Assembly (NCBI GenBank): GCA_964465575.1
Contig: CAYXIF010000006.1
Coordinates: 14,445 to 78,444 of the forward strand
Source of the DNA: an uncultured Candidatus Bathyarchaeia archaeon
GTDB taxonomy: Archaea > Thermoproteota > Bathyarchaeia > Bathyarchaeales > DTEX01
Direction: 5' to 3'
DNA length: 64,000 bases
Position 1 is the stretch's first letter. Each line of letters opens with the position of its first letter. Below, one piece after another: positions 9,423-63,049 of this stretch. The notes under the pieces are model-generated. The model had not been told where the DNA came from and searched no databases. It saw only the letters and a list, made by a program, of their open reading frames with translations. The position numbers were made by a program, and so were the translations under genes.

Positions 9423-9445
9423 GTTCTCACTCTGCGCTCTAGGTT

Positions 9446-35400: not shown

Positions 35401-35946
35401 ACGGACAATTCCTTGAGCGAAACCAGTTTCACTATTGAGAGAGCAGAAAACACTGCCTTCACTATAGGATTAACGACCTTCACGGTAGGAGCGAACGTGC
35501 AAACATACACCGACAATAGCATCAAGAACAAACAGCTCTACTATTACAGGGTCAAAGCTACCAACCTCGTCGGTGACACGACAAAATACTCTCCTCCAGC
35601 AGTCGGCTTCCAAACAATGTCAGTTGACTCAGAACCCAGCAATGTGGCAATTATTGATGCAATCCCTGCGGCTCCTTCGAATCTTCAAGCAACTTCGCTA
35701 GTAGGCAGTGGCGTTGTGCAATTAGCATGGAACGACAATTCCGAAAATGAACAAGGCTTCCTGCTCCAAAGAGCGACCAACAAAGGTTTCAGCCAAAACT
35801 TGGTAACCATCACGCTAGGATCGAACACACACACGTATGTTGACACAACGGTTACACTAAACACGCGCTACTACTACAGGGTGCAAGCCTTCAATGCACT
35901 AGGAAACTCTGCATATTCCAACACTGCCAGCGTTATGCCGATCTAA
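32461..35946 (+). CDS. Secreted multicopper oxidase (laccase/bilirubin-oxidase-like) with two C-terminal fibronectin type III domains
   Basis: 1161 aa. N-terminal signal/anchor. Copper motifs TLHLHGG, FYHDHSYG, HTVHWHMFEVQ and WHCHILAHEEMDMM. Two FN3-like repeats (PRAPTNLAVSV...YYYRVKATN and PAAPSNLQATS...YYYRVQAFN). Confidence 0.9.
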   Translation: MSKSKIRNSSNTSGVHSFRTIVITALLVTSLFASSLASLIVNVSYAQTLQVPHYFGPYPNYATSQLPTVTYDGLGNIVSVTGGIRKFIDSLPLLGPTGANTPLGQYIPIAVKDTTTYLGSDYYEIAVVEYYQQMHSDLAPTRLRGYVQLWTSTLPGTGVPLTNLNGTNATPILMPNGVQAVGVDIPRYLGPFIMAEKDRPVRVKFYNLLPKGAGGDLFIPVDTTVMGSGMGPIDMPGMPGMKESYTQNRATLHLHGGRTPWISDGTAHQWITPAGEDTVYPKGVSVYNVPDMPDPGPGAMTFFYTNQQSARLMFYHDHSYGITRLNVYAGEAAGYLLTDNIEKALIADLLIPADQIPLIIQDKTFVPDNTVPITNMWGTFSSQLAFQDPTWDTTMWGGPGSLWYPHVYMTMQNPGDPSGMNTFGRWQYGPWFWPPTVVEQGPIPNPYYPGGPLYSPTYPYNHLEPAMIPGTPNISMPGEAFMDTPVINGIAYPYLEVEPKAYRFRILNAADDRFFNLQIYVADSSVTTFDGRTNTEVKMVPAVLTPGFPEGWPTDGREGGVPDPATAGPSFIQIGNEGGFLPAPVVLPMQPVDWNMDQGTFDFGLVNKYTLLLGTAERADVIVDFSAFAGKTLILYNDCPAPVPASDPRQDYYTGKPDQTDSGGSPTTIAGYGSNTRTIMQIRVANTPPAAPFDLVALEQAFAAGVFAQSQNPIIVPQAAYGSAYGTTFPDVYSNIFDNSLTFTPIDSTTSVTIPFQAKAIQDEMGEAFDHVYGRMAVQFGLELPKTRALMQTTLLYNFGDPPTEIVKTSVAGTQIGTLGDGTQIWKITHNGVDVHTVHWHMFEVQLINRVAWDNNIRIPDPNELGWKETLRVNPLQDTIVALRPIVPVVPFDLPNSVRPIDPTMPLGATLKTQNIFDITGEPITLTNHLVNFGWEYAWHCHILAHEEMDMMRPIIVAVPPRAPTNLAVSVQGRRATLTWTDNSLSETSFTIERAENTAFTIGLTTFTVGANVQTYTDNSIKNKQLYYYRVKATNLVGDTTKYSPPAVGFQTMSVDSEPSNVAIIDAIPAAPSNLQATSLVGSGVVQLAWNDNSENEQGFLLQRATNKGFSQNLVTITLGSNTHTYVDTTVTLNTRYYYRVQAFNALGNSAYSNTASVMPI

Positions 35947-43454: not shown

Positions 43455-44630
43455 TTGTTTGAAAGATGGTCTGCGGGAGGCGGACTATTGACAGTCAACA
43501 GGTTTGAATGCGTTTTGTCTACATTGCTCCATGAAGATGCCCCCGTTACGCCTCAATCGATTGGCTTCACCAATGAGATGTCGAGAGCAAAGTTCACCCC
43601 GTCCATAAAGAAGGGCTTAGCTGAAGTTGAGAGAGAAGTGAGTAGAGCAACATATGAAATGACCATGGAAGGCTCTGGCGAATTGGGCAGAGCCATCAAG
43701 GTGGCTGAATTCTTGGATAACTTCTCCGTCGGCGTGGGAGGAGGAGGGTTCAAGATACAAAGGGTGGTTGAAACTGGGCCGCAGTGGAACCTCGTGGAAT
43801 GGGAGACTGGCGCCAAGTGGCGCGTAGGCACTGCGAACATAGTTTGGGCTCGGAAATACGTAGAGTTCCCCGTGGAATCCGAGGACGATTTGGATGAACT
43901 TGATCTGCCTGACCCGGACGATCCTTCTAGATATGAGGGGGTTGAGAAGTCGGTTAGGTATGCGGTTGATGAAGGGTTCTTTCCAGCAGGGGGCATAAAC
44001 GGTTTCTTCTCAGGCGTGTGGTACTTTCTTAGGGGACCTTTGGAGGTTTCTCTCAAGGACATGTATATGAGAAAGGACTTCTACAAGAAGCTGATAGCCA
44101 AGATGGCTCAGTTCAACCTTAAAGCTGAGAAGAACTTGCTTGAGAGGGGAGTCATGATTGTAGGTTGGCCTGATGACCTAGGCTATAGGGGAGGGACCTT
44201 CATGAACCCAAGACTCTACGAGGAACTCATATACCCTTGGCATGTCAAGGCTATAGACTTAGCCCACAAGTACGGAGCTTTCATCAACATGCACAGCCAC
44301 GGAAACATAAGCACTCTTGTGCCGCTGTTTGTCAAGGCTGGGTTGGACGTACTCAACCCTATAGGTCCGACAGACAATATGGATCTAGAGGCATTGAAAG
44401 AGAAGTACGGGGAAAAGATGTGCTTGCATGGAGGCCTGAGCAAGAACATCGGGTTCATGAGCAGCGAAGAGATGAGAGACCATCTGCTCGACAGGCTTCG
44501 CGTCGGCACCCCAGGGGGAGGGTTCATCCTTTCCTCAGAGGGTGACATACCTGTCGAGATGAGCGTTGAAAACTTTGAAGAGTTTCTTAAGTTGAGCAAG
44601 AAGTGCAGAAGAAATCAGCCAAAGGTATAG
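43455..44630 (+). CDS. Uroporphyrinogen decarboxylase (URO-D) family protein (MtaA/methyltransferase-like TIM barrel)
   Basis: 391 aa. GVWYFLRGPLEVSLKDMY, DDLGYRGGTFMNPRLYEELIYPW, MHSHGNISTLVPLFVKAGLDVLNPIGP and GGFILSSEGDIP. Confidence 0.7.
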   Translation: MFERWSAGGGLLTVNRFECVLSTLLHEDAPVTPQSIGFTNEMSRAKFTPSIKKGLAEVEREVSRATYEMTMEGSGELGRAIKVAEFLDNFSVGVGGGGFKIQRVVETGPQWNLVEWETGAKWRVGTANIVWARKYVEFPVESEDDLDELDLPDPDDPSRYEGVEKSVRYAVDEGFFPAGGINGFFSGVWYFLRGPLEVSLKDMYMRKDFYKKLIAKMAQFNLKAEKNLLERGVMIVGWPDDLGYRGGTFMNPRLYEELIYPWHVKAIDLAHKYGAFINMHSHGNISTLVPLFVKAGLDVLNPIGPTDNMDLEALKEKYGEKMCLHGGLSKNIGFMSSEEMRDHLLDRLRVGTPGGGFILSSEGDIPVEMSVENFEEFLKLSKKCRRNQPKV

Positions 44631-46232: not shown

Positions 46233-48344
46233 CTATAGTTTTGCTGTCACTCTGAACTGCGTTATCACACCGAGTATTATTGCGAATCCCACTGCGGCCG
46301 CCATTCCGGTTGCGAACGGCATAGCCTTCCTCTCGTATAGCTCTACGCCGCCGATTCTGAGTACGATGCGCTTGGCTACGTATGCCACTATTGACGGCAT
46401 GAGCGCGAGGATGGGAACCCATCCCATGCCCATCGCCACTCCTGCAGCGTTCAATGGGAACCACGGGAATCTCCCCTGGAAGAAGTATATCAATGAGACC
46501 ACTACTGCGCCTACTGCGAACAGGATCCACTGGTTTGGCGTGGGTAGCTTGCCGAGTCCTTCGCGCCAATAGTCTCCCACTTCGGTAATGGCGGCATAGG
46601 TCGGGGCTCTCTGATGGTAGTTGTTTGGTGCGCCTGTGAAGTTGAAGGCACCAAAGTTCACGGCGCCGAACATGCACCAGAACTGCAGAAGCGAGAATAG
46701 TCCAACTATGACGCTGACCACGACTGCCAACATTGTTGCGCCGAAGATGTACTTGGCGTGGATCCCTTGTAGCGCACCCATCCTATAGGATTCCAGTAGC
46801 GTCGCCATGGGAGCTGCTCTCATATAGGTGGTAAACCATGGGATGTCTGTTTTCAAGACTGTGAACCTAGTCTGGAGATCTCTGATGTAGAAGGGCGAGT
46901 TAGGATCGGCTACCCACCACTCTCTCATAGTTGTGTCCCAGTTGTGCGCCCACATGTTCTCGTTTACCCCACACACCCCTAGTCCGTATTCAGCTGCAGT
47001 CCTAGCTACCCCCATAAAGTAGAGTCCCATCAATACCGTCCATATTATGCCAAAGAGGATAGGGAGCGTTCCCATACTTGACTGCCACCACAGAGCCACA
47101 TCGATCAACAGCAGCCCCACAAAGGCTAGCAGCATAAGCCTATAGTTCATGGGTTCTCTCTGCTCGACTTCTGGACGTGCCTTACCCACAAATCCCTTGA
47201 GTGTGTTAACTAGTTCCCCTCTGAAAGCTATGAGGACAGGGTAGAACATCAAGCCAAAGCCAGCTCCAAACCCAACCCAGGCGGCTGCACCCCATGTTCT
47301 AACCCAAGACCTCATCAATGGTCCTGTCGCGTCACGCCAAATCCCAGTGATCATGCCATGCCCTGCGCCAGTTGCCCCTGCGGCTTGAGCTTCCCATAGA
47401 CCCATATACGCCATCGCCGGCCACCATATCCAGTAGACGCCGACGCAAGCGACTATATAGCTGAAGAGCGTTTTAGCTGGTACAAGAAACGCTGCCCCGA
47501 TCCAAAATGCTTCGAAGTTGAAGTTTAGGTTAGCCAATGGGATCAGCACAAGCGGAGTGAAATCATATCCTATGCTACCGTATTGCACGATTCGTGCCAT
47601 GCCTAACCCTGGGATGGTCCATGCCCAATATTGGAAGATTGCCAAGAAGCCTATCAGCACTCCCAGCCACAGGAACTTGTTGCTCAGGAACCTAGGTTCC
47701 TCTTTCTCATAAGTCATGTCGACCAAGCGCGATGCAGCCATTGCATGCGGGAAGGGCAGAGCTTCAATATCTATCCATTGTCTCCTCCATAACGTAGCCA
47801 TGACGGCGTACATTAGGTAGTACGGTACTAGTCTAGCTATGTTCCATAGTATGGCGGGCATCCAAGCGGCCCAAGGTACGGGGCCACCATACATCCACGA
47901 TTGCCACAGCTGCTCATTGTAGGGATCTGGACCAAACTGCCAGTTGATATCTTTGGCATAACCCAAGTTCCACCTTTGGAAGGCCGGAATCTGTCTGGCC
48001 GTGCCCAGCTGATTGACGCTGGGCAATATGCCATAGTGGGACGGTATGATCCACGTGACCCAGACCATAGCCAGTATTATGGTTAGTTCCCGCTTGTTGA
48101 TCCTGAGTGCCTTGCCAATGATCGAAGTAATTGTCGTTATTACTAAGGGCCACCACATCACAAACGTCATTTGGGCAGCCCAGCTATTACCCCAAGCCTC
48201 AGAGCTGAGGCCCCATAGGCTTCCGCCCGGCGTAAAGACAGCTATAAAGCTGGTGAAGAGTGTTGCAATCACGGTCCATATCAGTCCTATGACGTAGGTC
48301 ACTGGTCTAATGACAACTCTCTCTGCTGTTTTCTCTTCCAACAA
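46233..48344 (-). CDS. Large polytopic membrane protein, Trp-rich, distant OPT-like (paralog A)
   Basis: 703 aa, more than 14 TM segments. The IEALPFPHAMAAS motif is reminiscent of the OPT-family xLxFPSGTA loop. Own TATA-like CTTTTAAGG and a GGTGA SD-like site upstream. Confidence 0.6.
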   Translation of the reverse strand: MLEEKTAERVVIRPVTYVIGLIWTVIATLFTSFIAVFTPGGSLWGLSSEAWGNSWAAQMTFVMWWPLVITTITSIIGKALRINKRELTIILAMVWVTWIIPSHYGILPSVNQLGTARQIPAFQRWNLGYAKDINWQFGPDPYNEQLWQSWMYGGPVPWAAWMPAILWNIARLVPYYLMYAVMATLWRRQWIDIEALPFPHAMAASRLVDMTYEKEEPRFLSNKFLWLGVLIGFLAIFQYWAWTIPGLGMARIVQYGSIGYDFTPLVLIPLANLNFNFEAFWIGAAFLVPAKTLFSYIVACVGVYWIWWPAMAYMGLWEAQAAGATGAGHGMITGIWRDATGPLMRSWVRTWGAAAWVGFGAGFGLMFYPVLIAFRGELVNTLKGFVGKARPEVEQREPMNYRLMLLAFVGLLLIDVALWWQSSMGTLPILFGIIWTVLMGLYFMGVARTAAEYGLGVCGVNENMWAHNWDTTMREWWVADPNSPFYIRDLQTRFTVLKTDIPWFTTYMRAAPMATLLESYRMGALQGIHAKYIFGATMLAVVVSVIVGLFSLLQFWCMFGAVNFGAFNFTGAPNNYHQRAPTYAAITEVGDYWREGLGKLPTPNQWILFAVGAVVVSLIYFFQGRFPWFPLNAAGVAMGMGWVPILALMPSIVAYVAKRIVLRIGGVELYERKAMPFATGMAAAVGFAIILGVITQFRVTAKL

Positions 48345-48750: not shown

Positions 48751-50643
48751 CTAATACGGGGCAGCCCACATACTCCTCATGATCACGACCAAGCCTGTAC
48801 TCAAGGATATTATCAGGCCTTCACCGAGGAGGATGCCTGCGAAGATTATTCCTCTATATTCTCTCCATGTCTTCTCTCCGATGATCTGGGCTATGACCAT
48901 CCCGACTATGCTTCCGATGAACTGAGAGAAGGCTGAAGGAAACGCTGAGCCTATCCCACCAGCTATTCCGACTACTGCATTGGCAAACCCCAAGTAGGAT
49001 CCAGCGATGAACAGTCCCGCCCCAGCTACAAAACCGTATAGGATACGGTCAACCCTAAAGAACTCTGCGGCTTCCGGAGAGATGAAGAGGGACTGCATAG
49101 TTGCCTGAACGGGCCAGCTGTACAATGCTCCAGGATAGTCGGATGATGGTATAGGTGCCAAGCTCCACAGTGATTGCACTGTTATGAAGCCGAAGAGTAG
49201 GGCCAGTGGGAATATTATGAAGGTCGCTTTAATGTAGTCCTTCTGGGAGGTTTCGGTCATATCGCATATCTTCAGGTCTTGGGCCCATGATGAAGGCAGG
49301 TATATGGGAACGAACCACCCGTTGATGCCTGAATATCCTATACCTTTGAGAGTCATCTCTCTGACGTAGGGAATGCCAAAGCTAACGCCGACCCCTTGAG
49401 CTCTGGCTGAGATGAGAATCAGCAGAAACGGCCACGCCATGTTAAGCAGTATGTAGAAGATTATCGAAAGGTCCGGCGCAAGCATGTAATCGACTACGGA
49501 CAGGGCCAGCGTTGATCCCAGAAACAGGCCGATAATCAGGTAGATAGAGATTCCTGTTCTGCCAGTTCTAAGGCGGCCTAGAGATCGAAGTGCCTCAGTG
49601 ACAGTTTTGGGACGCATCAGAAGCGGGACAACCGCAATGGCCAGACCGTACCCCACTGCAATCATAGCCCAAGCCCACAAGACTGACCGTTCCCACGCAA
49701 AACTGATGCTCATACCATAGCTGTATTCTTGAGCGAAACCGGTGAGCTTGTATCTCACTAGTAAGTGATTTCCAAAAATGTACAAAGCTGTAGACCCGAT
49801 CAGTACGCCCAAGGCTGCTTGGAATGGTATGATGAAGCCCGTGGCGTAAACGGCTAGATCGGTCATTATTCCGAAGGATGCTCCAGGTAGGAACGATTGT
49901 ATTAACGCATTTTGATCAATCCAAGGTATAGGTAGGGGCTGTATGCGCATCCCCCAGAAAGCGAGACTAACGAGTGGAAGTGAGTAGAGAACAAAACCGT
50001 AGATTAAGGCAAAGGCAGTAGTTGCACCTAGGACGCCCATCTTTCTCCATTCTCTTTCAACCAGAGTCTTAGTGGTGTCGACTACTGGGTCGGCGAGGGG
50101 GAAGGGAAGTTTCTCAGCCACAACATATAGCTGGTATGCAAGTAGGCTCATGGCTAGATCTCCGAAGATCGCCGCGACGAAGAATGCGATGGTCCACAGA
50201 GTCACAGGCATCCATTCGGGATGGAAGAATGTTCTGTAAATCCAGACTTCGGGCGATGTGGGAGCGTAGAACCAAGGAACCTTGTCAGCCAGACCTAGGG
50301 CTTTAGTTACCGGAGAGTACCTCAGGTACACTTGGTATATCCAGCCGGGATGGGATAGGTTGCCAGTTGTGGGGGCTAGAAACCACCAGAACTTCAGAGT
50401 CTGGCCGCATGCTAGGTATATTATTATTGCTTCGCTAAGGGTTAGTCGGCTTCCGGCAAAGACCGCCGTCATCTCTATGAAGAGCAGAATGGTAGCCCAT
50501 TGGATAGCAGAGGTCGCAGGCGCGGAACCAGTCATCAACTGGAGGTAGCTGGAAGCCGCTTGAAATATGAATACTACGTATAGGAGGGCCAGCAGTGAGC
50601 GCCAAGTTAAGCCGCGCTTGACGGATGTGGCCTGTTCGCCCAT
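48751..50643 (-). CDS. Large polytopic membrane protein, distant OPT-like (paralog B)
   Basis: Likely start is ATG 50643 (MGEQATSVKRGLTW, 630 aa), 2 nt after the upstream stop. Motif AEKLPFPLADP at the equivalent position to paralog A. The track ORF extension to 50790 overlaps the preceding gene. Confidence 0.6.
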   Translation of the reverse strand: MGEQATSVKRGLTWRSLLALLYVVFIFQAASSYLQLMTGSAPATSAIQWATILLFIEMTAVFAGSRLTLSEAIIIYLACGQTLKFWWFLAPTTGNLSHPGWIYQVYLRYSPVTKALGLADKVPWFYAPTSPEVWIYRTFFHPEWMPVTLWTIAFFVAAIFGDLAMSLLAYQLYVVAEKLPFPLADPVVDTTKTLVEREWRKMGVLGATTAFALIYGFVLYSLPLVSLAFWGMRIQPLPIPWIDQNALIQSFLPGASFGIMTDLAVYATGFIIPFQAALGVLIGSTALYIFGNHLLVRYKLTGFAQEYSYGMSISFAWERSVLWAWAMIAVGYGLAIAVVPLLMRPKTVTEALRSLGRLRTGRTGISIYLIIGLFLGSTLALSVVDYMLAPDLSIIFYILLNMAWPFLLILISARAQGVGVSFGIPYVREMTLKGIGYSGINGWFVPIYLPSSWAQDLKICDMTETSQKDYIKATFIIFPLALLFGFITVQSLWSLAPIPSSDYPGALYSWPVQATMQSLFISPEAAEFFRVDRILYGFVAGAGLFIAGSYLGFANAVVGIAGGIGSAFPSAFSQFIGSIVGMVIAQIIGEKTWREYRGIIFAGILLGEGLIISLSTGLVVIMRSMWAAPY

Positions 50644-50645
50644 GG

Positions 50646-53600
50646 TCACGCGGCTCCTACGCGTTCCATCCCCTTGGATATTGCAGCAAATCTCCTCTGG
50701 TAATCTTCTCTTTCTTCTGGTTTGATGCTTCCCCAGAGAATAGTCTGCTTTCTGATTACATCTATGAACTCTCTGGCAAAGGTTATCCATGATCCCGTGG
50801 GGCCTGACTTCCTCTCAAGCGCCACCAAGAACGAGTGTCTCCCGGACCTTATGTCCTTCACATCCCTGATCTTGACAACTTGCGATATGCCTAACTCGTA
50901 GGGGGTTAAGGTTGAATCGAACTCTAGGCTTCGGATGATCTTGCCCTTCTCCTCTTCCACTTCATACCGTATCGGCAGCCTAGTTCTGAAGATTGAAGAG
51001 TCTTCAACTGTGTGGCCCACCAGCAGCTCATGGATGAAGGCTAAGACACCATCAGCTCTTATGTCCTCAGCTAAGGTGAATGGAAGCGTCACTTCCCACA
51101 TGTCTCCTTTCGGCTTGGGTAGCTTCCACTTGCGCTCAAGGGAGGGGGTTACGAGTTTGGATGCCTGATATATCGGATAGATCGTTATAGCCATAATAGC
51201 GGCCATCAGTGCTGAGATCGTCGTCACAACTGTGGTTGAAGCGTAATTGACCTGAAGCCCTATTCCCCAAGGAGTCACTCCCATGATCATAGTCGCAAGT
51301 ATTCCGAGCAGGTATCCTACAGTTCCTCCTAAGATTGAGTAGGTTACGCTCTCTGATAGAAACAGGAAGCCAACATGGAAGGGCGATAGGCCAACCGTGC
51401 TTAGTGTGTAAATGTCACGTCTCTTCTGCTCTATGGCGCTTGTTATAAGGCCAAGTACCATGAGGCCCGCCAATACTAGAGGTATGACTTGTTGCTGCCA
51501 CCCGAATACAGTAACAAAGTTCTCCTGCTTAACAGAATAACCCGTCCCGTTGGCGCCCAAGAATAGAGGTATCAATGTCTCTCTATATATTTCTCTTCCT
51601 ATGTTGAATATTGTGCCATCTCTGATGTATTCTGGCTCAAACTTCATGGCTATGCTCACAATCCAGCCTTTGAAGGTGTTCAAAAGCGTCTCATAGGGTA
51701 TTATTATCGTCTCTCTTGGGAGCACTCTGCCATCGAAGCCTGGAAGCCTCTGATCCCACGGCGTTATCCATAAGTTGTCTAGGTCGTAGATCTGGATGAA
51801 CTTCTTATCGTCCACTATGCCTGCGATCTTGAACGAGTACCCTGAGACCCACATAGTTTCTCCTACTTTGAGGTTACCTGCATCGGCGAGGTCTTTGCTT
51901 ATTATTGCCATGCGCTTGCCAGCCATCCCTTCAGTGAACCAGACACCATCAACTAGGGAGTTTTGTGGGCTTGTGACCTCTTGTTCCTGCGGGGTCAATC
52001 CTAGAATGGCTATTATCGGCGTCGGTACAATGTTACCTTTGCTATCGGTTACGTGGAGTCCACGCATCAAATTGCTTATCCAAGTCCAAGCTCTAGGTGC
52101 GATCGTCGCCTTGTCCCCGTATCTGGCCTCATATTCATCAAGAAGCCTCTGACCGACCTGTGGCGCAGCTCCGTCTCCGAACCCGCCGGAGGAGTAGTCC
52201 CAGTGTCTGACGAGTATGCCGTCGTATAATGCTGATGTCCCCGTTCTCCCAACGCTCAGGGCCCTTATGGTCAGCATCGAGGTGAACATGGACGTGCCCA
52301 TGGTAACGACTGTAACCGAGATTAGCGTCAACGCTGTCAGGAGTTTGCGCTTCCTCATGTGAGATATCCCTGTGGAGAACCCCAGTAAGGCCACGGAGAA
52401 CCTTGGAATCTCAACCCAGTGTACGCCTGCTATTCTCGCTGTGAGGCGAGTGAGCGTAGAGGCTGCGATACTGAACACGACGGCCAGAAGCGGCATTATC
52501 AGGACAACAACCAAGAATCCTATGACTATCATGAACGGGTTGCTGGCCAAGGTGAAGCCTGGGTGAACAAACCAGAAAACCAGCAGCGGCGCCAAGTAGC
52601 CTGTGACTGTGGAGAACACACGCCTCGGTCCATGCGTGCTCACGAAGAATCTTTCAGATATCACAGCGAAGGGAATCAGCGCCAAGCCGAAGAACGTGAT
52701 GGCGTAGATCGTGTCCTCAGTCGTGGCTCTTAGGCTGGCGTAGTTACCTCTTTCGAGCACCAGAAGCTGGTTTGACAGGGCTTCAACCTTCAGGTAGTCG
52801 TAATTCCTCAGAGCAGCGTAGGCCTCTTTGAATAGGGATTCTGTCTCCGCCATGCCAGGCGGGGATACGCCTCTAGCCTTCAACACGTTCAGCCTCTGCA
52901 TGGTGACCCTGTGCAGGTCTTCGGCTGCCTTAAGGGTCGTGTGAGTCAGGATAAGTTGTTCGCCAGCAAGAACCTTAAACCCTGAACCCGCCTGCAGATC
53001 CATACTCGTACCTATGACGAGCGACATGGGGTACCGAAGTGTGTAGGAGGTTCTAGAAAGAAATTCTACGGGGACATTTGGTGGCACATGTGCCGCAGCT
53101 ATTCCCAACCCGTAGCCGCCATAGATGTAACTGTGCCAGCTCCATTGTTCTGGAGGCGCATGAGAGACGAAGTCGTTCACTATCAATCTGTATTGTGCGT
53201 CTTGAGGCCCACTTCTATAGTAGACGTCTCCTGTATCGAAATGAATTATCGTTCCGCATTCGAAGAGCGTGTAAACGCCGAAGGATTGGGTCTTCCTGTC
53301 GAGAAGCTCGTTGCCGTAATCAGACCAAGATTGTCCGCCTCCTACGTCGATAGCCGTGTTCGGGTACCAGTATGGCGCTGTTCCGAACCCCGGTGAAAAT
53401 AGAACGTTGCCTGTTGTTTCATTTACGACGTGGGCTTCGAAAATGTATTCGCCGAGCCTTTCAGCCTGCAATAGTCCTGGCAACACAACTTTACCATCTG
53501 CGTCCGCCATGGCATAGAGGGGGAGAAGCCGCGTGTACAAGATGAAGCCTATGGTAGAGCCTCCATAAGTCCCTGATGGACCGCCCCGCGTATAGTATAT

Positions 53601-55271
53601 GAGGGCACGGGGCACCGGCTCATGCCGTCCAGCCGTGACGTTGTAACGTTTAATCTCACCTTCGGTGTCAACCCACTTGGGATAGTACATTCCCGGCGAT
53701 CCCGGTGCCCATTTCCCTATCAGCTTGGACAGGTCAACGTTCAATGTGGCGTGGACTATTGGGTAAATGGCTTCAAGCAGGTAGTTTACGTTTTCCCATC
53801 TCATACTGCCCGGCACATCCAGCGGCGTGTAGTAGTATCCATTGAAGGCTTGATAGTTTGTCCAAGAGTAGCCGGAGCCACCCAAAGCGAGAAGAGGCTC
53901 ACTGTTCATGTACCTATGGGGCGAACCCAGATAGTCATGGTATACGATGCCGTGGCCCGGCCCTCCGCTGCCGAACATGCCTCTGAAAATCCTGCTGGGT
54001 ACTATAATGTCTCCTACTCTCTGGTCTTGAGCCAGCTCGGCCCTCCCAAGCTTCTGGGCTAGGTCTGGGACCAAAGTCCTGAAGAGCCAGCTCTCGTAGC
54101 CAGTAACCCAAGGGGCGGTGCCCTCTCGCCATTCATGTGTCCATCCTGCGACAGTGGTCGGCATCATGAACTTGTTCGCATCATTTATATCGAGGTTGAT
54201 CTGCAACGCGATTTTGGATCCCCACTTTTCCCAGTTGCTGTCAACGTACTCCTTGATGAACCATCTGGAGCCTATCACGCCTTGATCTGTTCCAGAGAAG
54301 GCTATGAAAACTAATGTATACTTGTTAGAGCCCGGGTGTGACGAATAGTATTTGGCGAGCTGAAGGACCATAGCCATACCTATGGCTTCACGCGCCCCCG
54401 GAGATAGGCTTGGTATGAAGGAGAAGCTGTCGTACGCAGCAGTGATGAGAACATATCGATCTTTGTACTCTGTTCCCGGCAGGTAGCCGATTATGTTCTC
54501 TGCCGCGACTGTCCTCCACTTCATATTAGATACAAGCGTGACTGTGGGGGTTTGCTCGGACAGAGCCTTTAGCTTCTGAGCGTCCTCAGCCTTAACGTAA
54601 AGTCGGGGGAAGTTCCAAGCGACGTTTTCTAGAAACTTCATCGACGCCTCCATCATACTCATATCTTCAGGCTCCATAAACAACGCAGCCACAGCGCCAA
54701 GATTAGCTGCTGTCACCCAGTTATATTGAGTGTCAAAGTCCATCAGGACAATGCTGCCTTCGATTCCCTTGCCTGCTTTCTTAGCTGCCACCCCTAGCTC
54801 CTCAAGTCCTCCCTTTCCGACGTAGATAAGGTGCCCTTTCAAGCCTCCCGGAGGAGTCTGAGGCGGGCAGACCCTATTTGGGAACATAGGGTACAACGTG
54901 ATTTTCTCACCTGAAGCGAGCCCTAAGTAGGCTCCTTCGTCTTTGGGTATGACGACATCGAACCGATGTCGCGTCAAGTTCATCAAGCCGAAGCTCCTGA
55001 ACTTCGCCTCGATGTAGTTGGCGGCAGCGTAGCATCCTGGGTAGCCTGTAAACCTTGAGCCGAAGGCTGCAAGATCTTGAACGTAGCCTTTAAGCTCATC
55101 CATGTTGACAGCTTCGAGCCCAAGTTTCACATAGTCTGCTGGAATTTCCTGCGCCCACGCAGGCGCCACGGGCATGCTACATAGGATAGCCGTTAAGAGC
55201 AAAAATACTGTCACAAGCAACGGAGTGGTTGAGATGGCAAAATGCCTAAAACCCCTCACAGGTATAGCCAA
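50646..55271 (-). CDS. Fusion protein: N-terminal anchor, M28/PA (PSMA/transferrin-receptor-like) ectodomain, unknown beta-rich region, FtsX/MacB-type permease with its own extracytoplasmic domain, C-terminal cytoplasmic domain
   Basis: 1541 aa. M28-like FGSRFTGYPGCYAAANYIEAKF, LITAAYDS, SPGAREAIGMAMVLQLAKY and FIAFSGTDQGVIGSRWF. PA-like GSIVLMDFD. FtsX segment RKRKLLTALTLISVTVVTMG...(about 290-aa loop)...RRDIYTLSTVGLSPFHVGFLFLSESVTYSILGGTVGYLLG. Confidence 0.72.
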   Translation of the reverse strand: MAIPVRGFRHFAISTTPLLVTVFLLLTAILCSMPVAPAWAQEIPADYVKLGLEAVNMDELKGYVQDLAAFGSRFTGYPGCYAAANYIEAKFRSFGLMNLTRHRFDVVIPKDEGAYLGLASGEKITLYPMFPNRVCPPQTPPGGLKGHLIYVGKGGLEELGVAAKKAGKGIEGSIVLMDFDTQYNWVTAANLGAVAALFMEPEDMSMMEASMKFLENVAWNFPRLYVKAEDAQKLKALSEQTPTVTLVSNMKWRTVAAENIIGYLPGTEYKDRYVLITAAYDSFSFIPSLSPGAREAIGMAMVLQLAKYYSSHPGSNKYTLVFIAFSGTDQGVIGSRWFIKEYVDSNWEKWGSKIALQINLDINDANKFMMPTTVAGWTHEWREGTAPWVTGYESWLFRTLVPDLAQKLGRAELAQDQRVGDIIVPSRIFRGMFGSGGPGHGIVYHDYLGSPHRYMNSEPLLALGGSGYSWTNYQAFNGYYYTPLDVPGSMRWENVNYLLEAIYPIVHATLNVDLSKLIGKWAPGSPGMYYPKWVDTEGEIKRYNVTAGRHEPVPRALIYYTRGGPSGTYGGSTIGFILYTRLLPLYAMADADGKVVLPGLLQAERLGEYIFEAHVVNETTGNVLFSPGFGTAPYWYPNTAIDVGGGQSWSDYGNELLDRKTQSFGVYTLFECGTIIHFDTGDVYYRSGPQDAQYRLIVNDFVSHAPPEQWSWHSYIYGGYGLGIAAAHVPPNVPVEFLSRTSYTLRYPMSLVIGTSMDLQAGSGFKVLAGEQLILTHTTLKAAEDLHRVTMQRLNVLKARGVSPPGMAETESLFKEAYAALRNYDYLKVEALSNQLLVLERGNYASLRATTEDTIYAITFFGLALIPFAVISERFFVSTHGPRRVFSTVTGYLAPLLVFWFVHPGFTLASNPFMIVIGFLVVVLIMPLLAVVFSIAASTLTRLTARIAGVHWVEIPRFSVALLGFSTGISHMRKRKLLTALTLISVTVVTMGTSMFTSMLTIRALSVGRTGTSALYDGILVRHWDYSSGGFGDGAAPQVGQRLLDEYEARYGDKATIAPRAWTWISNLMRGLHVTDSKGNIVPTPIIAILGLTPQEQEVTSPQNSLVDGVWFTEGMAGKRMAIISKDLADAGNLKVGETMWVSGYSFKIAGIVDDKKFIQIYDLDNLWITPWDQRLPGFDGRVLPRETIIIPYETLLNTFKGWIVSIAMKFEPEYIRDGTIFNIGREIYRETLIPLFLGANGTGYSVKQENFVTVFGWQQQVIPLVLAGLMVLGLITSAIEQKRRDIYTLSTVGLSPFHVGFLFLSESVTYSILGGTVGYLLGILATMIMGVTPWGIGLQVNYASTTVVTTISALMAAIMAITIYPIYQASKLVTPSLERKWKLPKPKGDMWEVTLPFTLAEDIRADGVLAFIHELLVGHTVEDSSIFRTRLPIRYEVEEEKGKIIRSLEFDSTLTPYELGISQVVKIRDVKDIRSGRHSFLVALERKSGPTGSWITFAREFIDVIRKQTILWGSIKPEEREDYQRRFAAISKGMERVGAA

Positions 55272-55351: not shown

Positions 55352-56254
55352 CTACTTGATGCCCATAGATCTGATCGAGGATACGGCTTCATCCACCTTC
55401 TGCCGGCTCAGAATCTCCGTCACGGGGTTCATGCTAATGATGAGCTCGCTAACGCCTATCTCTGAAAGACTTCTCGCATCCTTCTCAGCAGGCTTAGCCA
55501 AGCTGAAGACTGCGTTGCCATGCAAGTACAGCTCCACAGTCATGAACACGCCCTTATGGTCTAAGAAAAATGCTCTGGTATCGCAAGGCTTGGAACATGT
55601 CTCAGGTGTCCTCTCCCCAAGAAAACGCGCGGTGTGACACTTCCTAGTGACAGTCACCGGAACAAAGTGCGTATGGACAGACACGTCAAGCCCAGCATCA
55701 ACCAAGAACCTGATACGCGGAAAGCAATTTGGAACCCAATCGAGGTCGACGCCTCGAACCCCAAGCTCCTGATAGAACTTGATGGTAGGTCCGTAATGCA
55801 GGCTCGTCTCACCGTATAAATCCTTTACTTGCCTTCTTACCATGGCTCCCTTCACCAAATAGCCGAAAAAGACTAAACCTCGAGTGTCCCTTTTAAACCA
55901 AGGGCACCGAGCTGGAACATGAACCAGCTGCCTCCCTAGGTATGGTCTTAGCCCATCGTACCCGTTTACGACGCTGAGCAAGCCCAGATCATTGACTATT
56001 ATCTCGGTTTCCCTCTTCGCACTTAGGAAACCTAGTTGATCTGTTACCTTTCTGAGGGCTCTATCAGAGCATCTAGGCGTAACGTATTCGAACTCCTTTC
56101 CCGCATCCTCGACAATAGCATAAGCCAACTTCAGCGTTTGCAGACTAGGTATCTTCCACTCGCAGAACTCTGGACCGAATCTCACCTTATCGCAGTCGGC
56201 AGCCGAAGCCTCCTTCAGCAACTCTAGATTGTCCACCTGCACTGAGAACTTCAT
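55352..56254 (-). CDS. Peptidase U32 family protein, short partner (UbiV-like size)
   Basis: Start ATG 56254 (MKFSVQVDNLELL) overlaps the upstream stop as ATGA. TIM-barrel-like N-terminus and a Cys cluster RKCHTARFLGERTPETCSKPCD. Confidence 0.6.
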   Translation of the reverse strand: MKFSVQVDNLELLKEASAADCDKVRFGPEFCEWKIPSLQTLKLAYAIVEDAGKEFEYVTPRCSDRALRKVTDQLGFLSAKRETEIIVNDLGLLSVVNGYDGLRPYLGRQLVHVPARCPWFKRDTRGLVFFGYLVKGAMVRRQVKDLYGETSLHYGPTIKFYQELGVRGVDLDWVPNCFPRIRFLVDAGLDVSVHTHFVPVTVTRKCHTARFLGERTPETCSKPCDTRAFFLDHKGVFMTVELYLHGNAVFSLAKPAEKDARSLSEIGVSELIISMNPVTEILSRQKVDEAVSSIRSMGIK

Positions 56255-57531
56255 GATTTCTTTTCCCTCGGATTCCACGAAGTAAAATGCTCATATGGAG
56301 CGTTGAAAAGCGGCGAAAAGTAACAGCGCTTCTGCTTACAGAAAACCTCCCTAAAGGGAAATTCGATGAGCCCCCGCAACGTCTCATACCGGACATCCTC
56401 AAGTTTCTTCCTAAGCGGTCTTTCCTTCTCGAGCACGCTCTTCTTCTGAGTCTCTCCAATAGGCTTTCCCAGATCCAGTTCATCTAACCTTCGCTTCAAA
56501 GACTCGATCTTCTGCCGCAGCCTATTAGCAGGGACCCTTCCTCCCCCCTTAGCTATCATATCCAAAAATTCGCGATATACCATGGTATAAGCTTCCTGTT
56601 GCTCAGGATGCATCAACCTACCCACTATCTTCAGACCAGCGACCCCAATCTGTACAAGTGTCTGTAAATGGCACAGTGAACAGAAGGTAAAGGCGTCTAG
56701 CACGGGTATGTTGCACAGCTTCTTGCCTCGATCGCTTGAGTCATATATGTCGTAGAACAAGGTGCAGGGAGAAGTTATGCTCTTTACATGCTTGCTCACC
56801 TTCAGTTCAGAGCCTAGGAGCTTGGAAAAGGGACCGTAATGATAGAAGTAGCAATTAGCATTGATATTCGAACATCCTCCGGCGTGACAGAAGATCTCGA
56901 TCGGAATTTCGCTGCGTCTCACAATTTCAGACACCTCTTGAAGGGTGAGGTGACGCTCCAGAATCACTCTGCTGAAACCCAGCCTCCTCAGAAAATCTAC
57001 CTGTTCACTGTTCATAGAGACGAAATAAGTGCTTGCAAGAAGAGGCACATCCACGCCTAGGTCCCGTATGACAGATAGCACTCCAAGGTCTCCCACTATT
57101 AGTGCATCCGCCCCTTGATCAAGGCAGGAGCGGACATGACTCTTCATTGGCTTCTCGAGATCTTCTGACATGAAGGGTTCATTTACTGTCACGACCACTT
57201 TCACGTTACGTCCATGAGCAAAATCCACAACCTTGGCGAGCTCATCATATGACTGCAACTGAGCTGGAGACCTGCCAGGACCCCTATATAAGGTGAAATG
57301 CTGCAGTTTTTCTGGCATAGCAACCCCGCAGTACACCTCGTCTGCCCCTGCGCGGACAACCCTGACAGCTCCTTCATAGGAATTTATTGGCGAGAGCAGC
57401 TTAGGTATTCTTCTCCGCTTCCATTCTTTCTGCGTCAAAACTAGTACCTCTAAGCTGCAAACCAATCTGATTACTTGGACGCAAGGATAAAAAGGTTGCC
57501 TCGGGGAGGTCTCTTCACCTACTTGACGCAT
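56251..57531 (-). CDS. Peptidase U32 family protein, long partner (UbiU/RlhA/TrhP-like)
   Basis: LLSPINSYEGAVRVVRAGADEVYCGV N-terminus and a U32 signature-like EIFCHAGGCSNINANCYF. The true start is probably internal (e.g. TTG 57438). Confidence 0.72.
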   Translation of the reverse strand: MRQVGEETSPRQPFYPCVQVIRLVCSLEVLVLTQKEWKRRRIPKLLSPINSYEGAVRVVRAGADEVYCGVAMPEKLQHFTLYRGPGRSPAQLQSYDELAKVVDFAHGRNVKVVVTVNEPFMSEDLEKPMKSHVRSCLDQGADALIVGDLGVLSVIRDLGVDVPLLASTYFVSMNSEQVDFLRRLGFSRVILERHLTLQEVSEIVRRSEIPIEIFCHAGGCSNINANCYFYHYGPFSKLLGSELKVSKHVKSITSPCTLFYDIYDSSDRGKKLCNIPVLDAFTFCSLCHLQTLVQIGVAGLKIVGRLMHPEQQEAYTMVYREFLDMIAKGGGRVPANRLRQKIESLKRRLDELDLGKPIGETQKKSVLEKERPLRKKLEDVRYETLRGLIEFPFREVFCKQKRCYFSPLFNAPYEHFTSWNPREKKS

Positions 57532-57658: not shown

Positions 57659-58786
57659 CTACGGGAAGAACTGACGGAAACAGTTAACCAGTTTCTGAGC
57701 CTTTTCGAAACTCTCTGCAGAGATCGAGAGTATCACGCCTGTCTTCCCTCGTAGGCTATTGCCAACGTTCTCAACCCACTCTTCAACAGTCTGATTCTCC
57801 AAGGGGCCGTCTGTCCAGATCAAACAAACGCCTTTCCGTCGGAAATAGTCGGCGATTTCTTCAAAGTTGTAGAATCTTCCCGGACTCCCGAAGAAGAAGG
57901 CCTTGACGTAGGGGTTGGAAACCACTTCATCAAGTATATGTTTCCCAGCCGACACCGGACTGCAGCAGAAATGACCCATGCCCCCATCGAAAGGTTTCAG
58001 GCACATCTCGTTAAAAGGTCTGCAAAATCTTCGGTATATTGTAGGAGAAAGCATGACAGCTACATCCTCGCAGAGCCGGGCACCACCCTTGTCCATCCAC
58101 ACGTTGGGGTTTCCGTGAACTCCTTTACCATTGGGCTCACCAACAATCTTCTTCTGGATCTCAGAAAAATCGACATATGCTTTTGAGATTCTTTCGAAAA
58201 GCTCTCTAACAAAGTCTGGATGCTTGTAGAAATCTGTCAATAGCTTCGTGCCTCTAATAAGGTAGGCCACGTCTAGGGGACCCTGCGTGTCACACAGATA
58301 GACCCTGATCACAGTACCATCAAGTTTCTTAACAAAATACTCTTCCGTTTCCAGTGCGGCCTTCATCAGTCCATCACTATATGGATCAGGGTCCTTCAAG
58401 GCATCAATGCTCGGAGTGTCTCCGGTAATGATTGGCGCCTTGACCCAAGGCATATTGTCTACTTCTTGTTGTACGACTATCTCGCTTCCGAACCCACTGG
58501 GAATTACTCCGACGCCGTAATTCGCCCTTAGACACAACATGGCGTCATCCTGCAAAATGCAGTGCGAATAGATGCTTGCCAATTGAGATACCAACATCTT
58601 GTCTCGGTCGGAAAAGGTTTCCGCGTACTTGAACTTGGGCCAAGTATCCGGGGGCGGACAATTGACAATCAGAGGCGGACGATCAACGGGTCTAAAGTTC
58701 CACGAGGCGCTTTGTCTCTCCTGAGCCTCGTCCATAACGTCGAGCCTAACCTTCTCGACAACCTTCCCGAGCCATGCATCGATCAT
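57659..58786 (-). CDS. URO-D family-like TIM-barrel protein (second paralog, divergent)
   Basis: 375 aa. DTQGPLDVAYLIRGTKLLTDFYKHPDFVRELFERIS and EDVAVMLSPTIYRRFCRPF match the URO-D/MtaA pattern loosely. Confidence 0.5.
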   Translation of the reverse strand: MIDAWLGKVVEKVRLDVMDEAQERQSASWNFRPVDRPPLIVNCPPPDTWPKFKYAETFSDRDKMLVSQLASIYSHCILQDDAMLCLRANYGVGVIPSGFGSEIVVQQEVDNMPWVKAPIITGDTPSIDALKDPDPYSDGLMKAALETEEYFVKKLDGTVIRVYLCDTQGPLDVAYLIRGTKLLTDFYKHPDFVRELFERISKAYVDFSEIQKKIVGEPNGKGVHGNPNVWMDKGGARLCEDVAVMLSPTIYRRFCRPFNEMCLKPFDGGMGHFCCSPVSAGKHILDEVVSNPYVKAFFFGSPGRFYNFEEIADYFRRKGVCLIWTDGPLENQTVEEWVENVGNSLRGKTGVILSISAESFEKAQKLVNCFRQFFP

Positions 58787-60730: not shown

Positions 60731-63049
60731 TTACTCTCTCAGCAGTTCAGTACACCTGAATATCCTCATGTCCATGTCATCTATGAGGGCTCGAACGTCC
60801 GAGACTTCGTTCTCAACCTTCTTCAAGGCTGTCTGCAGAACGTTCATCCTGTATTCGAACCCATCCTGAGAAAGCTCGCCGACACCGAATCTTGCCGCGA
60901 TCTCTTTGATCTCGTCTTTAAGCCTAGAAGCTTCGGCTTCGAGGCCTATCAATTGGTCAATCTTCTCTCTTCTTGTGGGAGCCCACCTTTCGGAAACTGA
61001 CCCCAACCTCTGCTGACACACTAATAAGGCTTTCCGAACGTCTTCTGACTCTCTTCTCGTAACATGTCCATCTCTGATCAAAGATAAGTACTGCTCAATG
61101 ATCGATGCCTCTTCCCCAATGGAAAGCGATGACAAGGCTGCTCCGATCTTTGAGACCTGATCTTCCCACTTCTGCAAGTTAGATGAGTAGACCATCGAAC
61201 TGGGCAAGCCTTTTGAGTACTGACCACTCTCAACCACGTCTTTATACCCTCTAATGTAACGTAGGTCTGCGATGGACTGTGACCCTCCTAGCCCGTTGGG
61301 TTGCGTTGTGTGGACCGGTACACGAACCTTCTCCTTGGCCCACTCCAACCTAGCCATGGCCATGTAGAGTTCCAAAACCTCTCTAGACTTGAGGAGTTCG
61401 TTAAAGGAAAGGGAGAGATGCCCACCCAACTCGTCCGCTATGGCGCCGTACGCTTTCTCGTGAATCTCGCCGGACCTAAACAGTTTCGCTAGCTCTTCCA
61501 ACCTTAGCGCGATATCCTTTATCTCTCTGACATGAGCCTGGAAGTCCTTTGCGCGGTCGTCTATGTCATCCTCGACCCGCTTGCTCGAACTCCCGGGAGC
61601 AGTCCGAGGCTTCACTGGAGCTTCCTGAACTCGGGATTCTTGGCTCGTAGGGAGGGGCAGGATTGCCTGCGGTTCCCTTCTTAAGCGTTTGGCCAAACCT
61701 GCCACGGCCCCGGTCACGACCCAGAAGCCGATCGTCGGGTAAGGCAGAAGGCTTCTCCATTTGTAGAGAAGAGCTGGTATTCCGGAAAACAAGAGAAACG
61801 ATTCATGGCCCGTCGCGGGGAGGAATGTTCGGTAAACATCTTCGAGCCTTTCTCCCCTAACCCTGATTTTGTGGAGATCGTTGGTTCCTAGGCCTTTCTC
61901 CCGCCCCAACTTAAGAGTAGGCACTTTCTCAGGGTCGAAACCCACTATCGCCGATGCCACGGAGTCGGTTGCGACAGGGTCCTTGCCGACCACCAGTATG
62001 CCCATGTTGACCGAAGGTCCTTCATGCGGCCCTTGTCCCTCCATCGCAACTCTTCCATCGATAATGTTTAGGTTAATCTTACGTGCGCTACAGAGGTCTA
62101 CTATGACGCCACCCATGTACGTGTCGCCCTTTTCTTGGGCTTTCTGATGAAGGACCATCTTTGGAATTCCGTAGACTGAGCCAGCCGCGATCCCAACGAG
62201 GTTCTTCATTCCCAAGGTCACGACGGCTGTGTCATGTGTCTTCATGCAAGCGACCGATATGAAAACGTCAGCGTCCACAAGAATCTGGTTGAACTGGAAG
62301 CTGTTGAAGACGTATCCGCCTCCTGGGACAGAGACGTTCACAAGTGAACCGTAGTTAAGGTCGACTAGTTCGACACCTGGAATCAGGTCCACAGCTGAGT
62401 AGCCTAAGGCCTTGAAGTTGCTGATTGTGTTGCCTTCTCCGCTGCCATCAGCCACCCAGATCACACTCGGGTTTCTTTGCTTGATGATGTTGATGAGCGC
62501 GGTAACTAATACTGGATCAACTGTGTCGGGTGGCGCTTGGTTTCTGACAATGTTAGGTTTAATCAGAACTTTGGCGCCGACCGGAATCAGACTTCCGATG
62601 CCTCCAATATGGTCAAGGGCTGTTGCCAGTGCAGTTTGAACACCTCCGCTAACTTTGACTACTGAAACAGAAGTCAACTCCTGAGTGAGTGTTGACCGTT
62701 CACTGAGAGCGGAGACCGGGCTGACCATAACGTTGCTGTACAATGTAAGACCTGAAGCCGAAATGGACAGGGATAGCAAGGTGGCATAGAGGATTGACTT
62801 CTTCCTTCTTGAGTTTTTTACTGCTCCTACTGCCTTGGAGGCGGTTCTTCTTGACGCATCAGCCACGAAAGCAATAAACGGGTATATGAGAAAGTTATAG
62901 CTGGTTGCAGCAGCCGCTTTCTGGCAGGGATACACAATCCGCGAGGGTCTCGTTCCAGATCTTATCAGCAGCCAGAAAAGGCTGACAATGCCTATTGTCG
63001 CGGTGCTTGCAGCTATGCTCCTAATGAGTCTCCCTATTCTATCAACCAA
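60731..63049 (-). CDS. Membrane protein with extracytoplasmic DUF362 domain and long cytoplasmic coiled-coil tail
   Basis: 772 aa. Three N-terminal TMs, DUF362-like VLIKPNIVRNQAPPDTVDPVLVTALINII...VWVADGSG...MKTHDTAVVTLGMKNLVG, two further TMs, then about 300 aa of heptad-rich sequence with SHOCT-like GEIHEKAY / GELSQDGFEYR motifs. Confidence 0.62.
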   Translation of the reverse strand: MVDRIGRLIRSIAASTATIGIVSLFWLLIRSGTRPSRIVYPCQKAAAATSYNFLIYPFIAFVADASRRTASKAVGAVKNSRRKKSILYATLLSLSISASGLTLYSNVMVSPVSALSERSTLTQELTSVSVVKVSGGVQTALATALDHIGGIGSLIPVGAKVLIKPNIVRNQAPPDTVDPVLVTALINIIKQRNPSVIWVADGSGEGNTISNFKALGYSAVDLIPGVELVDLNYGSLVNVSVPGGGYVFNSFQFNQILVDADVFISVACMKTHDTAVVTLGMKNLVGIAAGSVYGIPKMVLHQKAQEKGDTYMGGVIVDLCSARKINLNIIDGRVAMEGQGPHEGPSVNMGILVVGKDPVATDSVASAIVGFDPEKVPTLKLGREKGLGTNDLHKIRVRGERLEDVYRTFLPATGHESFLLFSGIPALLYKWRSLLPYPTIGFWVVTGAVAGLAKRLRREPQAILPLPTSQESRVQEAPVKPRTAPGSSSKRVEDDIDDRAKDFQAHVREIKDIALRLEELAKLFRSGEIHEKAYGAIADELGGHLSLSFNELLKSREVLELYMAMARLEWAKEKVRVPVHTTQPNGLGGSQSIADLRYIRGYKDVVESGQYSKGLPSSMVYSSNLQKWEDQVSKIGAALSSLSIGEEASIIEQYLSLIRDGHVTRRESEDVRKALLVCQQRLGSVSERWAPTRREKIDQLIGLEAEASRLKDEIKEIAARFGVGELSQDGFEYRMNVLQTALKKVENEVSDVRALIDDMDMRIFRCTELLRE

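Follow-up and report, generated by a model that had tools for sequence, protein, structure and literature searches.

Can a chain that joins a peptidase-like head to an ABC-type permease be put to work in a region in which no ABC ATPase is encoded, and by what means? This question is raised by an open reading frame (ORF) of 1541 amino acids (aa), the longest of the region, which occupies positions 50646..55271 on the minus strand of a 64,000-nucleotide stretch (64 kb; hereafter, the window) of contig CAYXIF010000006.1 (assembly GCA_964465575.1) from an uncultured Candidatus Bathyarchaeia archaeon. An earlier note on this DNA had described the ORF as a fusion of an M28 peptidase-like ectodomain carrying a PA domain to an FtsX/MacB-type permease, and Pfam, AlphaFold2 (AF2) models and Foldseek searches have borne out this architecture. 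We propose, as a reading with about an even chance of being correct, that the fusion supplies an asymmetric type VII ABC mechanotransmission complex with its large permease subunit, which bears the receptor, and that this complex works with OPT-like partner proteins.

A large family with one architecture

The ORF starts with a TTG codon, has the sequence GGTGGAG 7 nt upstream, and finds its closest named homologues in Candidatus Bathyarchaeota/Bathyarchaeia. According to Pfam and to the architecture of the homologues, the chain comprises a pseudo-M28/PA ectodomain, three extra transmembrane helices (TMs), a MacB/FtsX unit and a cytoplasmic tail. This full-length architecture (about 1430-1950 aa) is shared by 65 further clusters, down to 23% identity. 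A scan of one genome per GTDB species, run with an 11-sequence alignment of the fusion (the 64-sequence alignment holds no stretch conserved enough to search with), yielded 275 loci. The archaeal ones come from Bathyarchaeia, Brockarchaeota, Thermofilaceae, Desulfurococcaceae and other Thermoproteota, and the bacterial ones from Latescibacterota, Zixibacteria and Gemmatimonadota; the members from Armatimonadota and Brocadiia come from the homologue clusters. A genome can carry several copies: among 80 of the 275 loci, as many as 6 come from a single metagenome-assembled genome (MAG).

In public annotation the members of this family are called "M28 family peptidase" or "FtsX-like permease family protein", and the first of these labels is misleading because the catalytic site is gone. 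NCBIfam holds no family for the fusion, for its OPT-like partner or for the DUF6785 gene that accompanies them. The earlier note had not recognised the architecture as described, and in the searchable literature we have likewise found no published description of an M28+FtsX architecture, of DUF6785 or of an orphan type VII ABC system in archaea.

An M28-like head without the canonical catalytic site

The chain begins with a hydrophobic segment (aa 1-41; 55149..55271; all the features of the fusion lie on the minus strand) that ends in AWA followed by QE. This segment had been taken for an N-terminal anchor; judging from its hydropathy and sequence, it is probably a cleavable signal peptide instead. 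It is followed by an M28 aminopeptidase-like domain (aa ~42-520; 53712..55148) into which a PA domain is inserted (aa ~118-241), as delimited by Pfam, AF2, Foldseek and the family profile. The Pfam Peptidase_M28 model matches aa 259-368 with its first half alone (E 2e-13; 50.9 bits against a cut-off of 21.3), the Nicastrin model matches aa 272-341, and the PA model (PF02225) is recorded in five homologues.

AF2 models of the two halves of the fusion were built from the 64-sequence family alignment, and the ectodomain was predicted with a pLDDT of 91.6 and a pTM of 0.92. Searched with Foldseek against the PDB, this model finds as its best matches the PA-bearing M28 aminopeptidases 2ek8 and BSAP (6hc6), with E ~1e-25 to 1e-24 and a TM-score to the target of ~0.6. 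GCPII/PSMA and TfR1 are matched with E ~1e-22 (range to 1e-21) and low TM-scores, 0.33-0.39. The family profile compared with PDB sequences gives the same picture on the M28 side, i.e., 2ek8 (1.7e-34), BSAP (1.8e-26), TfR1 (6e-17), nicalin (7e-14) and nicastrin (1e-7). The ectodomain had been called PSMA/TfR-like, and both proteins are indeed matched, but it is the bacterial PA-bearing aminopeptidases that score best.

To locate the metal site, residues were aligned with those of the Aeromonas aminopeptidase (1amp) and of 2ek8, and the family was counted over 64 sequences. The histidine ligand His97 is replaced by A279 (Y in 26, H in 11, A in 7 and F in 6 sequences of the family) and His256 by Y481 (D, G, Y or W in the family, with H in 3). 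The ligand Asp117 falls at R294/E295, in a loop that is shorter by one residue and where the family is mixed (position 294 is E in 27, R in 20 and D in 7), and the ligand Glu152 corresponds to D329, which in the family is mostly F, N or W. The general base Glu151 has become T328; the family has H in 37 sequences, T in 19 and also S or Y at this position, and never Glu. The ligand Asp179 is retained as D361 (D in 51/64), and the second-shell Asp99 is present as the invariant D281. Thus, of the five zinc ligands (His, Asp, Glu, Asp, His) the target keeps the fourth only, and none of the 64 homologues has both His ligands or the general-base Glu.

The three motif readings on which the note had based its suggestion of a pseudo-peptidase are correct, and the loss of ligands and the pseudo-peptidase status extend to the whole family alignment. 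By these alignments, the head is an M28-peptidase homologue that fails the defining catalytic features. An active canonical M28 enzyme is ruled out by the loss of both His ligands and of the general-base Glu. Several residues around the former metal site are conserved (Y280, D281, S284, G292, G334 and R336), a pattern that would fit a retained binding surface.

Between the head and the membrane, an extracellular region (aa ~521-853; 52713..53711) contains, in the AF2 model, one or more beta-rich domains and then a three-helix stalk (aa ~778-859) that runs into the membrane. No known fold could be assigned to aa ~521-853, and no alignment of the stalk to the helical dimerisation domain of PSMA/TfR was obtained.

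A single MacB/FtsX unit and a family-specific tail

Three additional TMs (aa 855-875, 887-903 and 913-938; 52452..52712), recognised by hydropathy and as AF2 helices, connect the ectodomain to the permease unit and bring the chain back to the cytoplasm. Because their number is odd, the 810-aa extracellular part lies outside while the FtsX unit begins on the cytoplasmic side, which is the orientation that a MacB unit needs. The earlier note was right in seeing a complete FtsX-type unit, but it had not described these three helices before the first TM of that unit.

The permease unit itself (aa ~941-1372; 51156..52451) was delimited with Pfam, PDB sequence matches and Foldseek. It consists, in this order, of an amphipathic helix, TM1, a periplasmic-core-like domain, TM2, a coupling-helix motif, TM3 and TM4. 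Hydropathy places TM1 at aa 977-996 and TM2-4 at aa 1258-1368, with a 260-aa loop in between. Pfam FtsX matches aa 1265-1372 (35.9 bits against a cut-off of 25.5), and MacB_PCD matches aa 985-1174 marginally (28.3 bits against a cut-off of 27); the periplasmic-core assignment is also backed by a Foldseek match to the N-terminal domain of LolE (5udf) and by the profile alignment to MacB. The AF2 model of the C-terminal half, i.e., the membrane part and the tail (pLDDT 86.6), matches MacB, LolC/E of LolCDE, the pneumococcal transporter Spr0694-0695 (5xu1), HrtB and YtrF with E down to 5e-11. By sequence, the unit matches LolE, MacB and LolC in the PDB, the family profile reaching 4e-22 with MacB.

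Pfam, hydropathy, AF2 and Foldseek agree on an FtsX unit of four TMs whose ends are cytoplasmic and whose TM1-TM2 loop is large, and the fusion has the structure that defines a type VII ABC (MacB/FtsX) permease. The motif QKRRDIYTLSTVGLSP, between TM2 and TM3, appears to occupy the position of the major coupling helix of MacB; its consensus, YERxxEIxIxSSVGLSPxHI, is kept family-wide and aligns with MacB ERTKEIGVRMAIGA. The ADOP duplicated orphan permeases (TIGR03434) were considered and discarded, the target chain holding one FtsX unit and not two.

The chain ends in a cytoplasmic tail of ~165 aa (aa ~1373-1541; 50649..51155), already recognised in the earlier note and conserved in the family, for which AF2 predicts an alpha/beta fold. 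Its residues P1457, G1490, W1495, R1507 and W1513 are invariant. Used alone as a phmmer query, the tail finds 1150 representatives at 50% identity, 589 of them with E<=1e-10, and in all 150 matches listed it stands at the very C-terminus. Most of the tail-bearing proteins have ~1450-1640 aa, those that are shorter could be fragments, and the tail is specific to this family. Profile and Pfam searches gave no meaningful Pfam or PDB sequence match to it, and its Foldseek matches to helix-grip (SRPBCC / Bet v 1-like) folds are weak and local (E 0.03-0.07, probability 0.5-0.96). The possibility that the tail is a cryptic ATPase was rejected because it has no Walker or other nucleotide-binding motif.

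Two OPT-superfamily genes next to the fusion

The most informative feature of the locus, missed by the earlier note, is the tight linkage of the fusion to genes of the OPT superfamily. The partner gene (48751..50643, minus strand) encodes a 630-aa polytopic membrane protein, and its ATG, preceded by GGAG, lies 2 nt past the TGA of the fusion. Downstream of it, a second gene on the same strand (46233..48344) encodes a 703-aa paralogue with the domains DUF6785 and DUF6784, which is recognised by Pfam with 75 bits and has a weak OPT match. The partner protein of the target has no Pfam match of its own, its subfamily being without a dedicated Pfam model; Pfam OPT matches were obtained in 5/24 of its orthologues (best E 9e-11). 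BLASTP relates the partner to the DUF6785+DUF6784 protein with E 2e-5, and hhalign aligns both families over 592 columns with a probability of 99.96% (E 1e-38). On these profile alignments, both neighbouring genes belong to the OPT superfamily and the partner is a distant paralogue of the DUF6785 gene.

Synteny was counted over 81 loci with a near-full-length fusion, and the partner directly adjoins the fusion in 63 of them, being located downstream on the same strand in 46, upstream and divergent in 10, and upstream on the same strand in 7. The gaps to the downstream partners are mostly about -28 to +17 nt. A mirror-tree comparison of fusion and partner distances gave r = 0.915 (n = 68; Mantel 0 of 999), which, together with the presence of several paralogues per genome, indicates that fusion and partner are duplicated together and diverge jointly. 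In 49/89 loci, the fetched flanks (up to 10 kb on each side) contain a DUF6785-type gene, often directly beside the fusion.

All-against-all clustering of the neighbours revealed nothing consistently conserved besides the OPT-like genes. The next most frequent neighbours are uroporphyrinogen decarboxylase (URO-D)-like genes in 17 loci, Gfo/Idh/MocA genes in 12 and ABC ATPases in 11.

In one locus labelled Nitrososphaerota (L006, 14675-16577), two genes of 339 and 296 aa stand in the usual place of the ~650-aa partner. BLAST shows no similarity of either to the partner; they could represent a partner that has been split or has diverged strongly, or else have no relation to it.

Candidates for the motor

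In four bacterial loci (two from Armatimonadota and two unclassified) the fusion and an ATPase lie in one same-strand gene cluster with the order fusion, partner, a 300-aa Cys-containing cytoplasmic protein, a PqqD-like protein, a small FtsX and the ATPase. The small FtsX (202-209 aa) is a minimal four-TM protein without the large loop, and the ATPase (246-257 aa) obtains its best scores against the LolD, MacB, YbbA and FtsE models.

The 300-aa protein (L004, 16702-18025; also in L002, L024 and L084) carries a CDEC motif and has no Pfam match. Together with the PqqD-like protein, which resembles a RiPP recognition element, it separates the OPT-like partner from the small FtsX/ATPase pair, and no archaeal counterpart of either protein was seen near the fusion.

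The archaeal ATPase was searched for using the copy from locus L017 as query. Its best 120 matches are 80-93% identical, and the named ones are all from Bathyarchaeia, Thermoprotei or Thermofilaceae. In Thermofilaceae, the ATPase is 68% identical to the bacterial one and lies beside a 211-aa small FtsX, which in turn is 40% identical to its bacterial counterpart over the full length; both genes stand among housekeeping genes. In Bathyarchaeia, as in another two contexts with archaeal top ATPase matches, no FtsX permease adjoins the ATPase. Thus, lineages with several orphan MacB-type permeases also hold a conserved, often orphan, MacB-class ATPase. The existence of bacterial clusters that contain the ATPase and of unlinked archaeal orthologues makes a trans-encoded ATPase fit better than the ATPase-independent machine that the earlier note had put first, with a trans-encoded ATPase as its fallback. 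The orphan conserved ATPase and the kept coupling-helix motif point, circumstantially, in the same direction, i.e., to a shared motor encoded in trans, and the presence of up to 6 loci per MAG also fits such sharing.

Stand-alone LolD/MacB-class ATPases were observed, outside the window, at L089:8001-8735, L092:8001-8729, L094:6001-6726 and L097:3001-3666. Their 80-93% identity is unusually high for an ABC ATPase, and an adjacent permease is usually absent. In one lineage the gene follows a MurJ/Polysacc_synt flippase-like gene. In L089 a second ATPase paralogue (9247-9987, minus strand), 70% identical to the conserved one, lies directly beside the first and is clustered with genes for a PadR regulator and for a protein of 108 aa (8907-9233 and 10042-10395).

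Proposed mechanism

In the proposed complex, the head, with an M28/PA fold minus the di-zinc catalytic site, would act as a ligand-binding module and not as an enzyme. It would be tethered by the helical stalk and the three extra TMs to the single four-TM FtsX unit with its periplasmic-core-like domain, and the chain would close with the family-specific cytoplasmic domain. The motor would be a LolD/MacB-class ATPase, probably plus the minimal four-TM FtsX, located outside this window; the archaeal motor would be encoded elsewhere, probably in common to the paralogous modules of the genome, and the bacterial one in the gene cluster. The complex would act with one or two OPT-superfamily proteins, one of them co-transcribed with the fusion. 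The stalk helices and the periplasmic core domain would be set in motion when the ATPase dimer, encoded in trans, binds and hydrolyses ATP; as a result, the dead-peptidase head would shift in position or affinity and, by analogy to FtsEX-EnvC, would bind and release a ligand. The ligand would then be passed for uptake to the OPT-like proteins, as suggested by their constant presence.

Such a complex would most likely catch an organic ligand outside the cell, possibly a peptide-like one, and pass it on for uptake to an OPT-like channel at the expense of ATP. The aminopeptidase-like head, the OPT-related partners and the PqqD-like, peptide-binding protein of the bacterial clusters suggest a peptide theme, and the variable catabolic neighbours, i.e., glycoside hydrolases (GHs), Gfo/Idh/MocA and URO-D-like proteins, would allow for substrates of other kinds.

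Several observations weigh against this proposal. As the earlier note had stated for the surroundings of the ORF, there is no ATPase nearby, and this holds across the full 64 kb, where a six-frame search found no ORF with Walker A plus the ABC signature and tblastn with the MacB-class ATPase and the small FtsX gave zero matches at E<=10. Most archaeal fusion loci have no ATPase or small FtsX within 10 kb, and the loci of Brocadiia, Latescibacterota and Gemmatimonadota lack the full gene cluster. The archaeal locus L017, with an ATPase 2 kb from the fusion, was not accepted as evidence, since a single such case among about 75 archaeal loci is to be expected by chance. The archaeal ATPase is seen at the level of the lineage, and, with or without the small FtsX, it might be a transporter in its own right that has nothing to do with the fusion. 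Peptide-related neighbours are no more frequent than sugar- or catabolism-like ones (GHs, Gfo/Idh/MocA, URO-D-like). Finally, we know of no type VII ABC system that feeds a secondary transporter or that imports.

Other explanations of the fusion

The large majority of archaeal loci have no ATPase within 10 kb and the window has none at all, a fact that also favours an ATPase-independent receptor or scaffold, in which the MacB-like part would be a passive anchor or conformational relay and the head would feed an OPT-like partner driven by the proton motive force. OPT transporters are proton-coupled secondary carriers, the ADOP family (TIGR03434) provides a precedent for orphan FtsX permeases, and the conserved tail is placed where cytoplasmic partners would dock. 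Nevertheless, the coupling-helix motif is conserved family-wide, the bacterial members keep a MacB-class ATPase in the gene cluster, the same archaeal lineages have orphan ATPases orthologous to it, and the tail, without a nucleotide-binding motif, offers no energy supply of its own. For these reasons we consider ATPase independence unlikely and prefer the model of a trans-encoded ATPase.

A regulator of the FtsEX-EnvC kind would use the same ATP-driven motion for a different end: it would expose or hide the dead peptidase domain and so activate or recruit an extracellular enzyme or envelope component, the OPT-like proteins being clients or anchors. The LytM domain of EnvC is itself degenerate, and the family profile matches nicalin and nicastrin (E 7e-14 and 1e-7), which are non-catalytic subunits of membrane complexes. 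FtsEX controls hydrolases via EnvC and PcsB (PMC8277102). In addition, a glycosyltransferase (PMT_2) gene and an AglB gene are present in the window. The PMT linkage, however, is confined to close relatives, no extracellular enzyme is a conserved neighbour, the OPT-like genes alone being consistently linked, and a copy number of up to 6 per MAG is more in keeping with the acquisition of specific substrates than with a housekeeping role in the envelope. We regard this regulator as quite improbable.

It is very improbable that the head is an active peptidase with a non-canonical site, e.g., a mono-metal one made from the retained Asp residues. Such a site could draw on the invariant D281, on D361, on the acidic residue that is common at 294/295 and on the His that 37/64 family members have at 328; against it, the target, with A279, T328 and Y481, lacks a general base and has none of its ligand positions occupied by His, and the putative ligand positions vary widely in the family, unlike an active site.

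That an assembly or gene-calling artefact has fused two genes, for which no supporting evidence was found, is refuted by the conservation of the architecture in 65 independent clusters from several sources, 275 loci and ~1150 tail-bearing representatives, the topology being coherent and AF2 confident across the domain junctions.

Comparison with known systems

Mechanotransmission, FtsEX-EnvC and the asymmetric BceB have been reviewed (PMC8277102). As in FtsEX with EnvC, PcsB or RipC, a MacB/FtsX-type permease would here govern an extracytoplasmic peptidase-like module, which is degenerate in EnvC, and in FtsEX, as we propose for the fusion, ATP hydrolysis drives a conformational change and not transmembrane transport. 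Unlike those systems, the dead peptidase of the fusion is M28/PA, and not LytM/M23 or CHAP, and is covalently joined via three extra TMs; the fusion is also mostly archaeal and has a unique cytoplasmic tail and the linkage to OPT-like genes. Archaea are, to our knowledge, a domain without peptidoglycan.

With MacB and LolCDE the fusion shares the four-TM FtsX unit, the periplasmic core between TM1 and TM2, the coupling-helix motif and, in the bacterial clusters, a LolD/MacB-class ATPase. It differs from them in the added 810-aa ectodomain, three TMs and tail, in the unlinked archaeal ATPase, and in having no adaptor, outer-membrane or lipoprotein context. In the BceAB-type transporters, one FtsX unit with a large extracellular domain is paired with one that lacks it, and the same asymmetry would arise if the fusion were paired with the small FtsX. 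However, BceB carries both units in one 10-TM chain, and it senses or relieves antimicrobial peptides in Firmicutes.

The head resembles nicastrin, nicalin and the transferrin receptor in having an M28 (+PA) fold that has lost its catalytic residues and would provide a membrane complex with its extracellular binding subunit. Those proteins are eukaryotic and single-pass, have presenilin, TMEM147-NOMO and transferrin as their partners, respectively, and none is fused to a permease. The aminopeptidases of Aneurinibacillus (2ek8) and of B. subtilis (BSAP/YwaD, 6hc6) are the nearest to the ectodomain by sequence profile and by fold, but they are soluble, secreted and active di-zinc enzymes with the full H/D/E/D/H set and the catalytic Glu. 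As for the OPT superfamily, including DUF6785/DUF6784, it holds the two neighbouring genes of the fusion, and we know of no report of OPT carriers working with an ABC-type or receptor subunit.

Other genes of the window

Upstream of the fusion lie two overlapping genes on the minus strand (55352-56278 and 56251-57531). One of them encodes a peptidase U32 family protein (426 aa), and the product of the other (308 aa), which has no Pfam match, may be a divergent U32-like paralogue, judged by eye. Genes similar to those of URO-D or MtaA are located at 43455-44630 (plus strand) and 57659-58786 (minus strand). A 772-aa protein encoded at 60731-63049 (minus strand) contains DUF362 and a weak, below-threshold match to the CdvA-like coiled coil, and a 1161-aa protein encoded at 32461-35946 (plus strand) has a fibronectin type III domain at its C-terminus and contains a short motif of the multicopper-oxidase kind. 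The other genes of the window are of archaeal chromosomal type and include those for class I lysyl-tRNA synthetase (LysRS), AglB/STT3, a topoisomerase and DnaK.

Implications

The family is large, is represented by several copies per genome and was previously unstudied. The fusion adds a prokaryotic case to the few M28-fold pseudo-peptidase receptor subunits (TfR, nicastrin and nicalin), and its link between a type VII ABC-type permease and OPT-like proteins is unprecedented. If our proposal is true, the mechanotransmission principle of type VII ABC systems extends to archaea, the fusion belongs to the first such system coupled to OPT-superfamily proteins, and the conserved ATPase becomes a concrete candidate for a shared, trans-encoded motor.

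In sediments and hot springs, few archaea are more abundant than Bathyarchaeia and their relatives, whose uptake of detrital organic matter is poorly understood. A more far-reaching idea, which we offer tentatively and hold to be doubtful, is that the fusion belongs to a hybrid uptake machine, in which an ATP-driven type VII ABC mechanotransducer with a dead-aminopeptidase receptor would catch ligands outside the cell and load them into dedicated OPT-superfamily channels and one highly conserved orphan ATPase would serve many paralogous modules; such a machine might be a main route for organic substrates in Bathyarchaeia, Brockarchaeota and Thermofilaceae.

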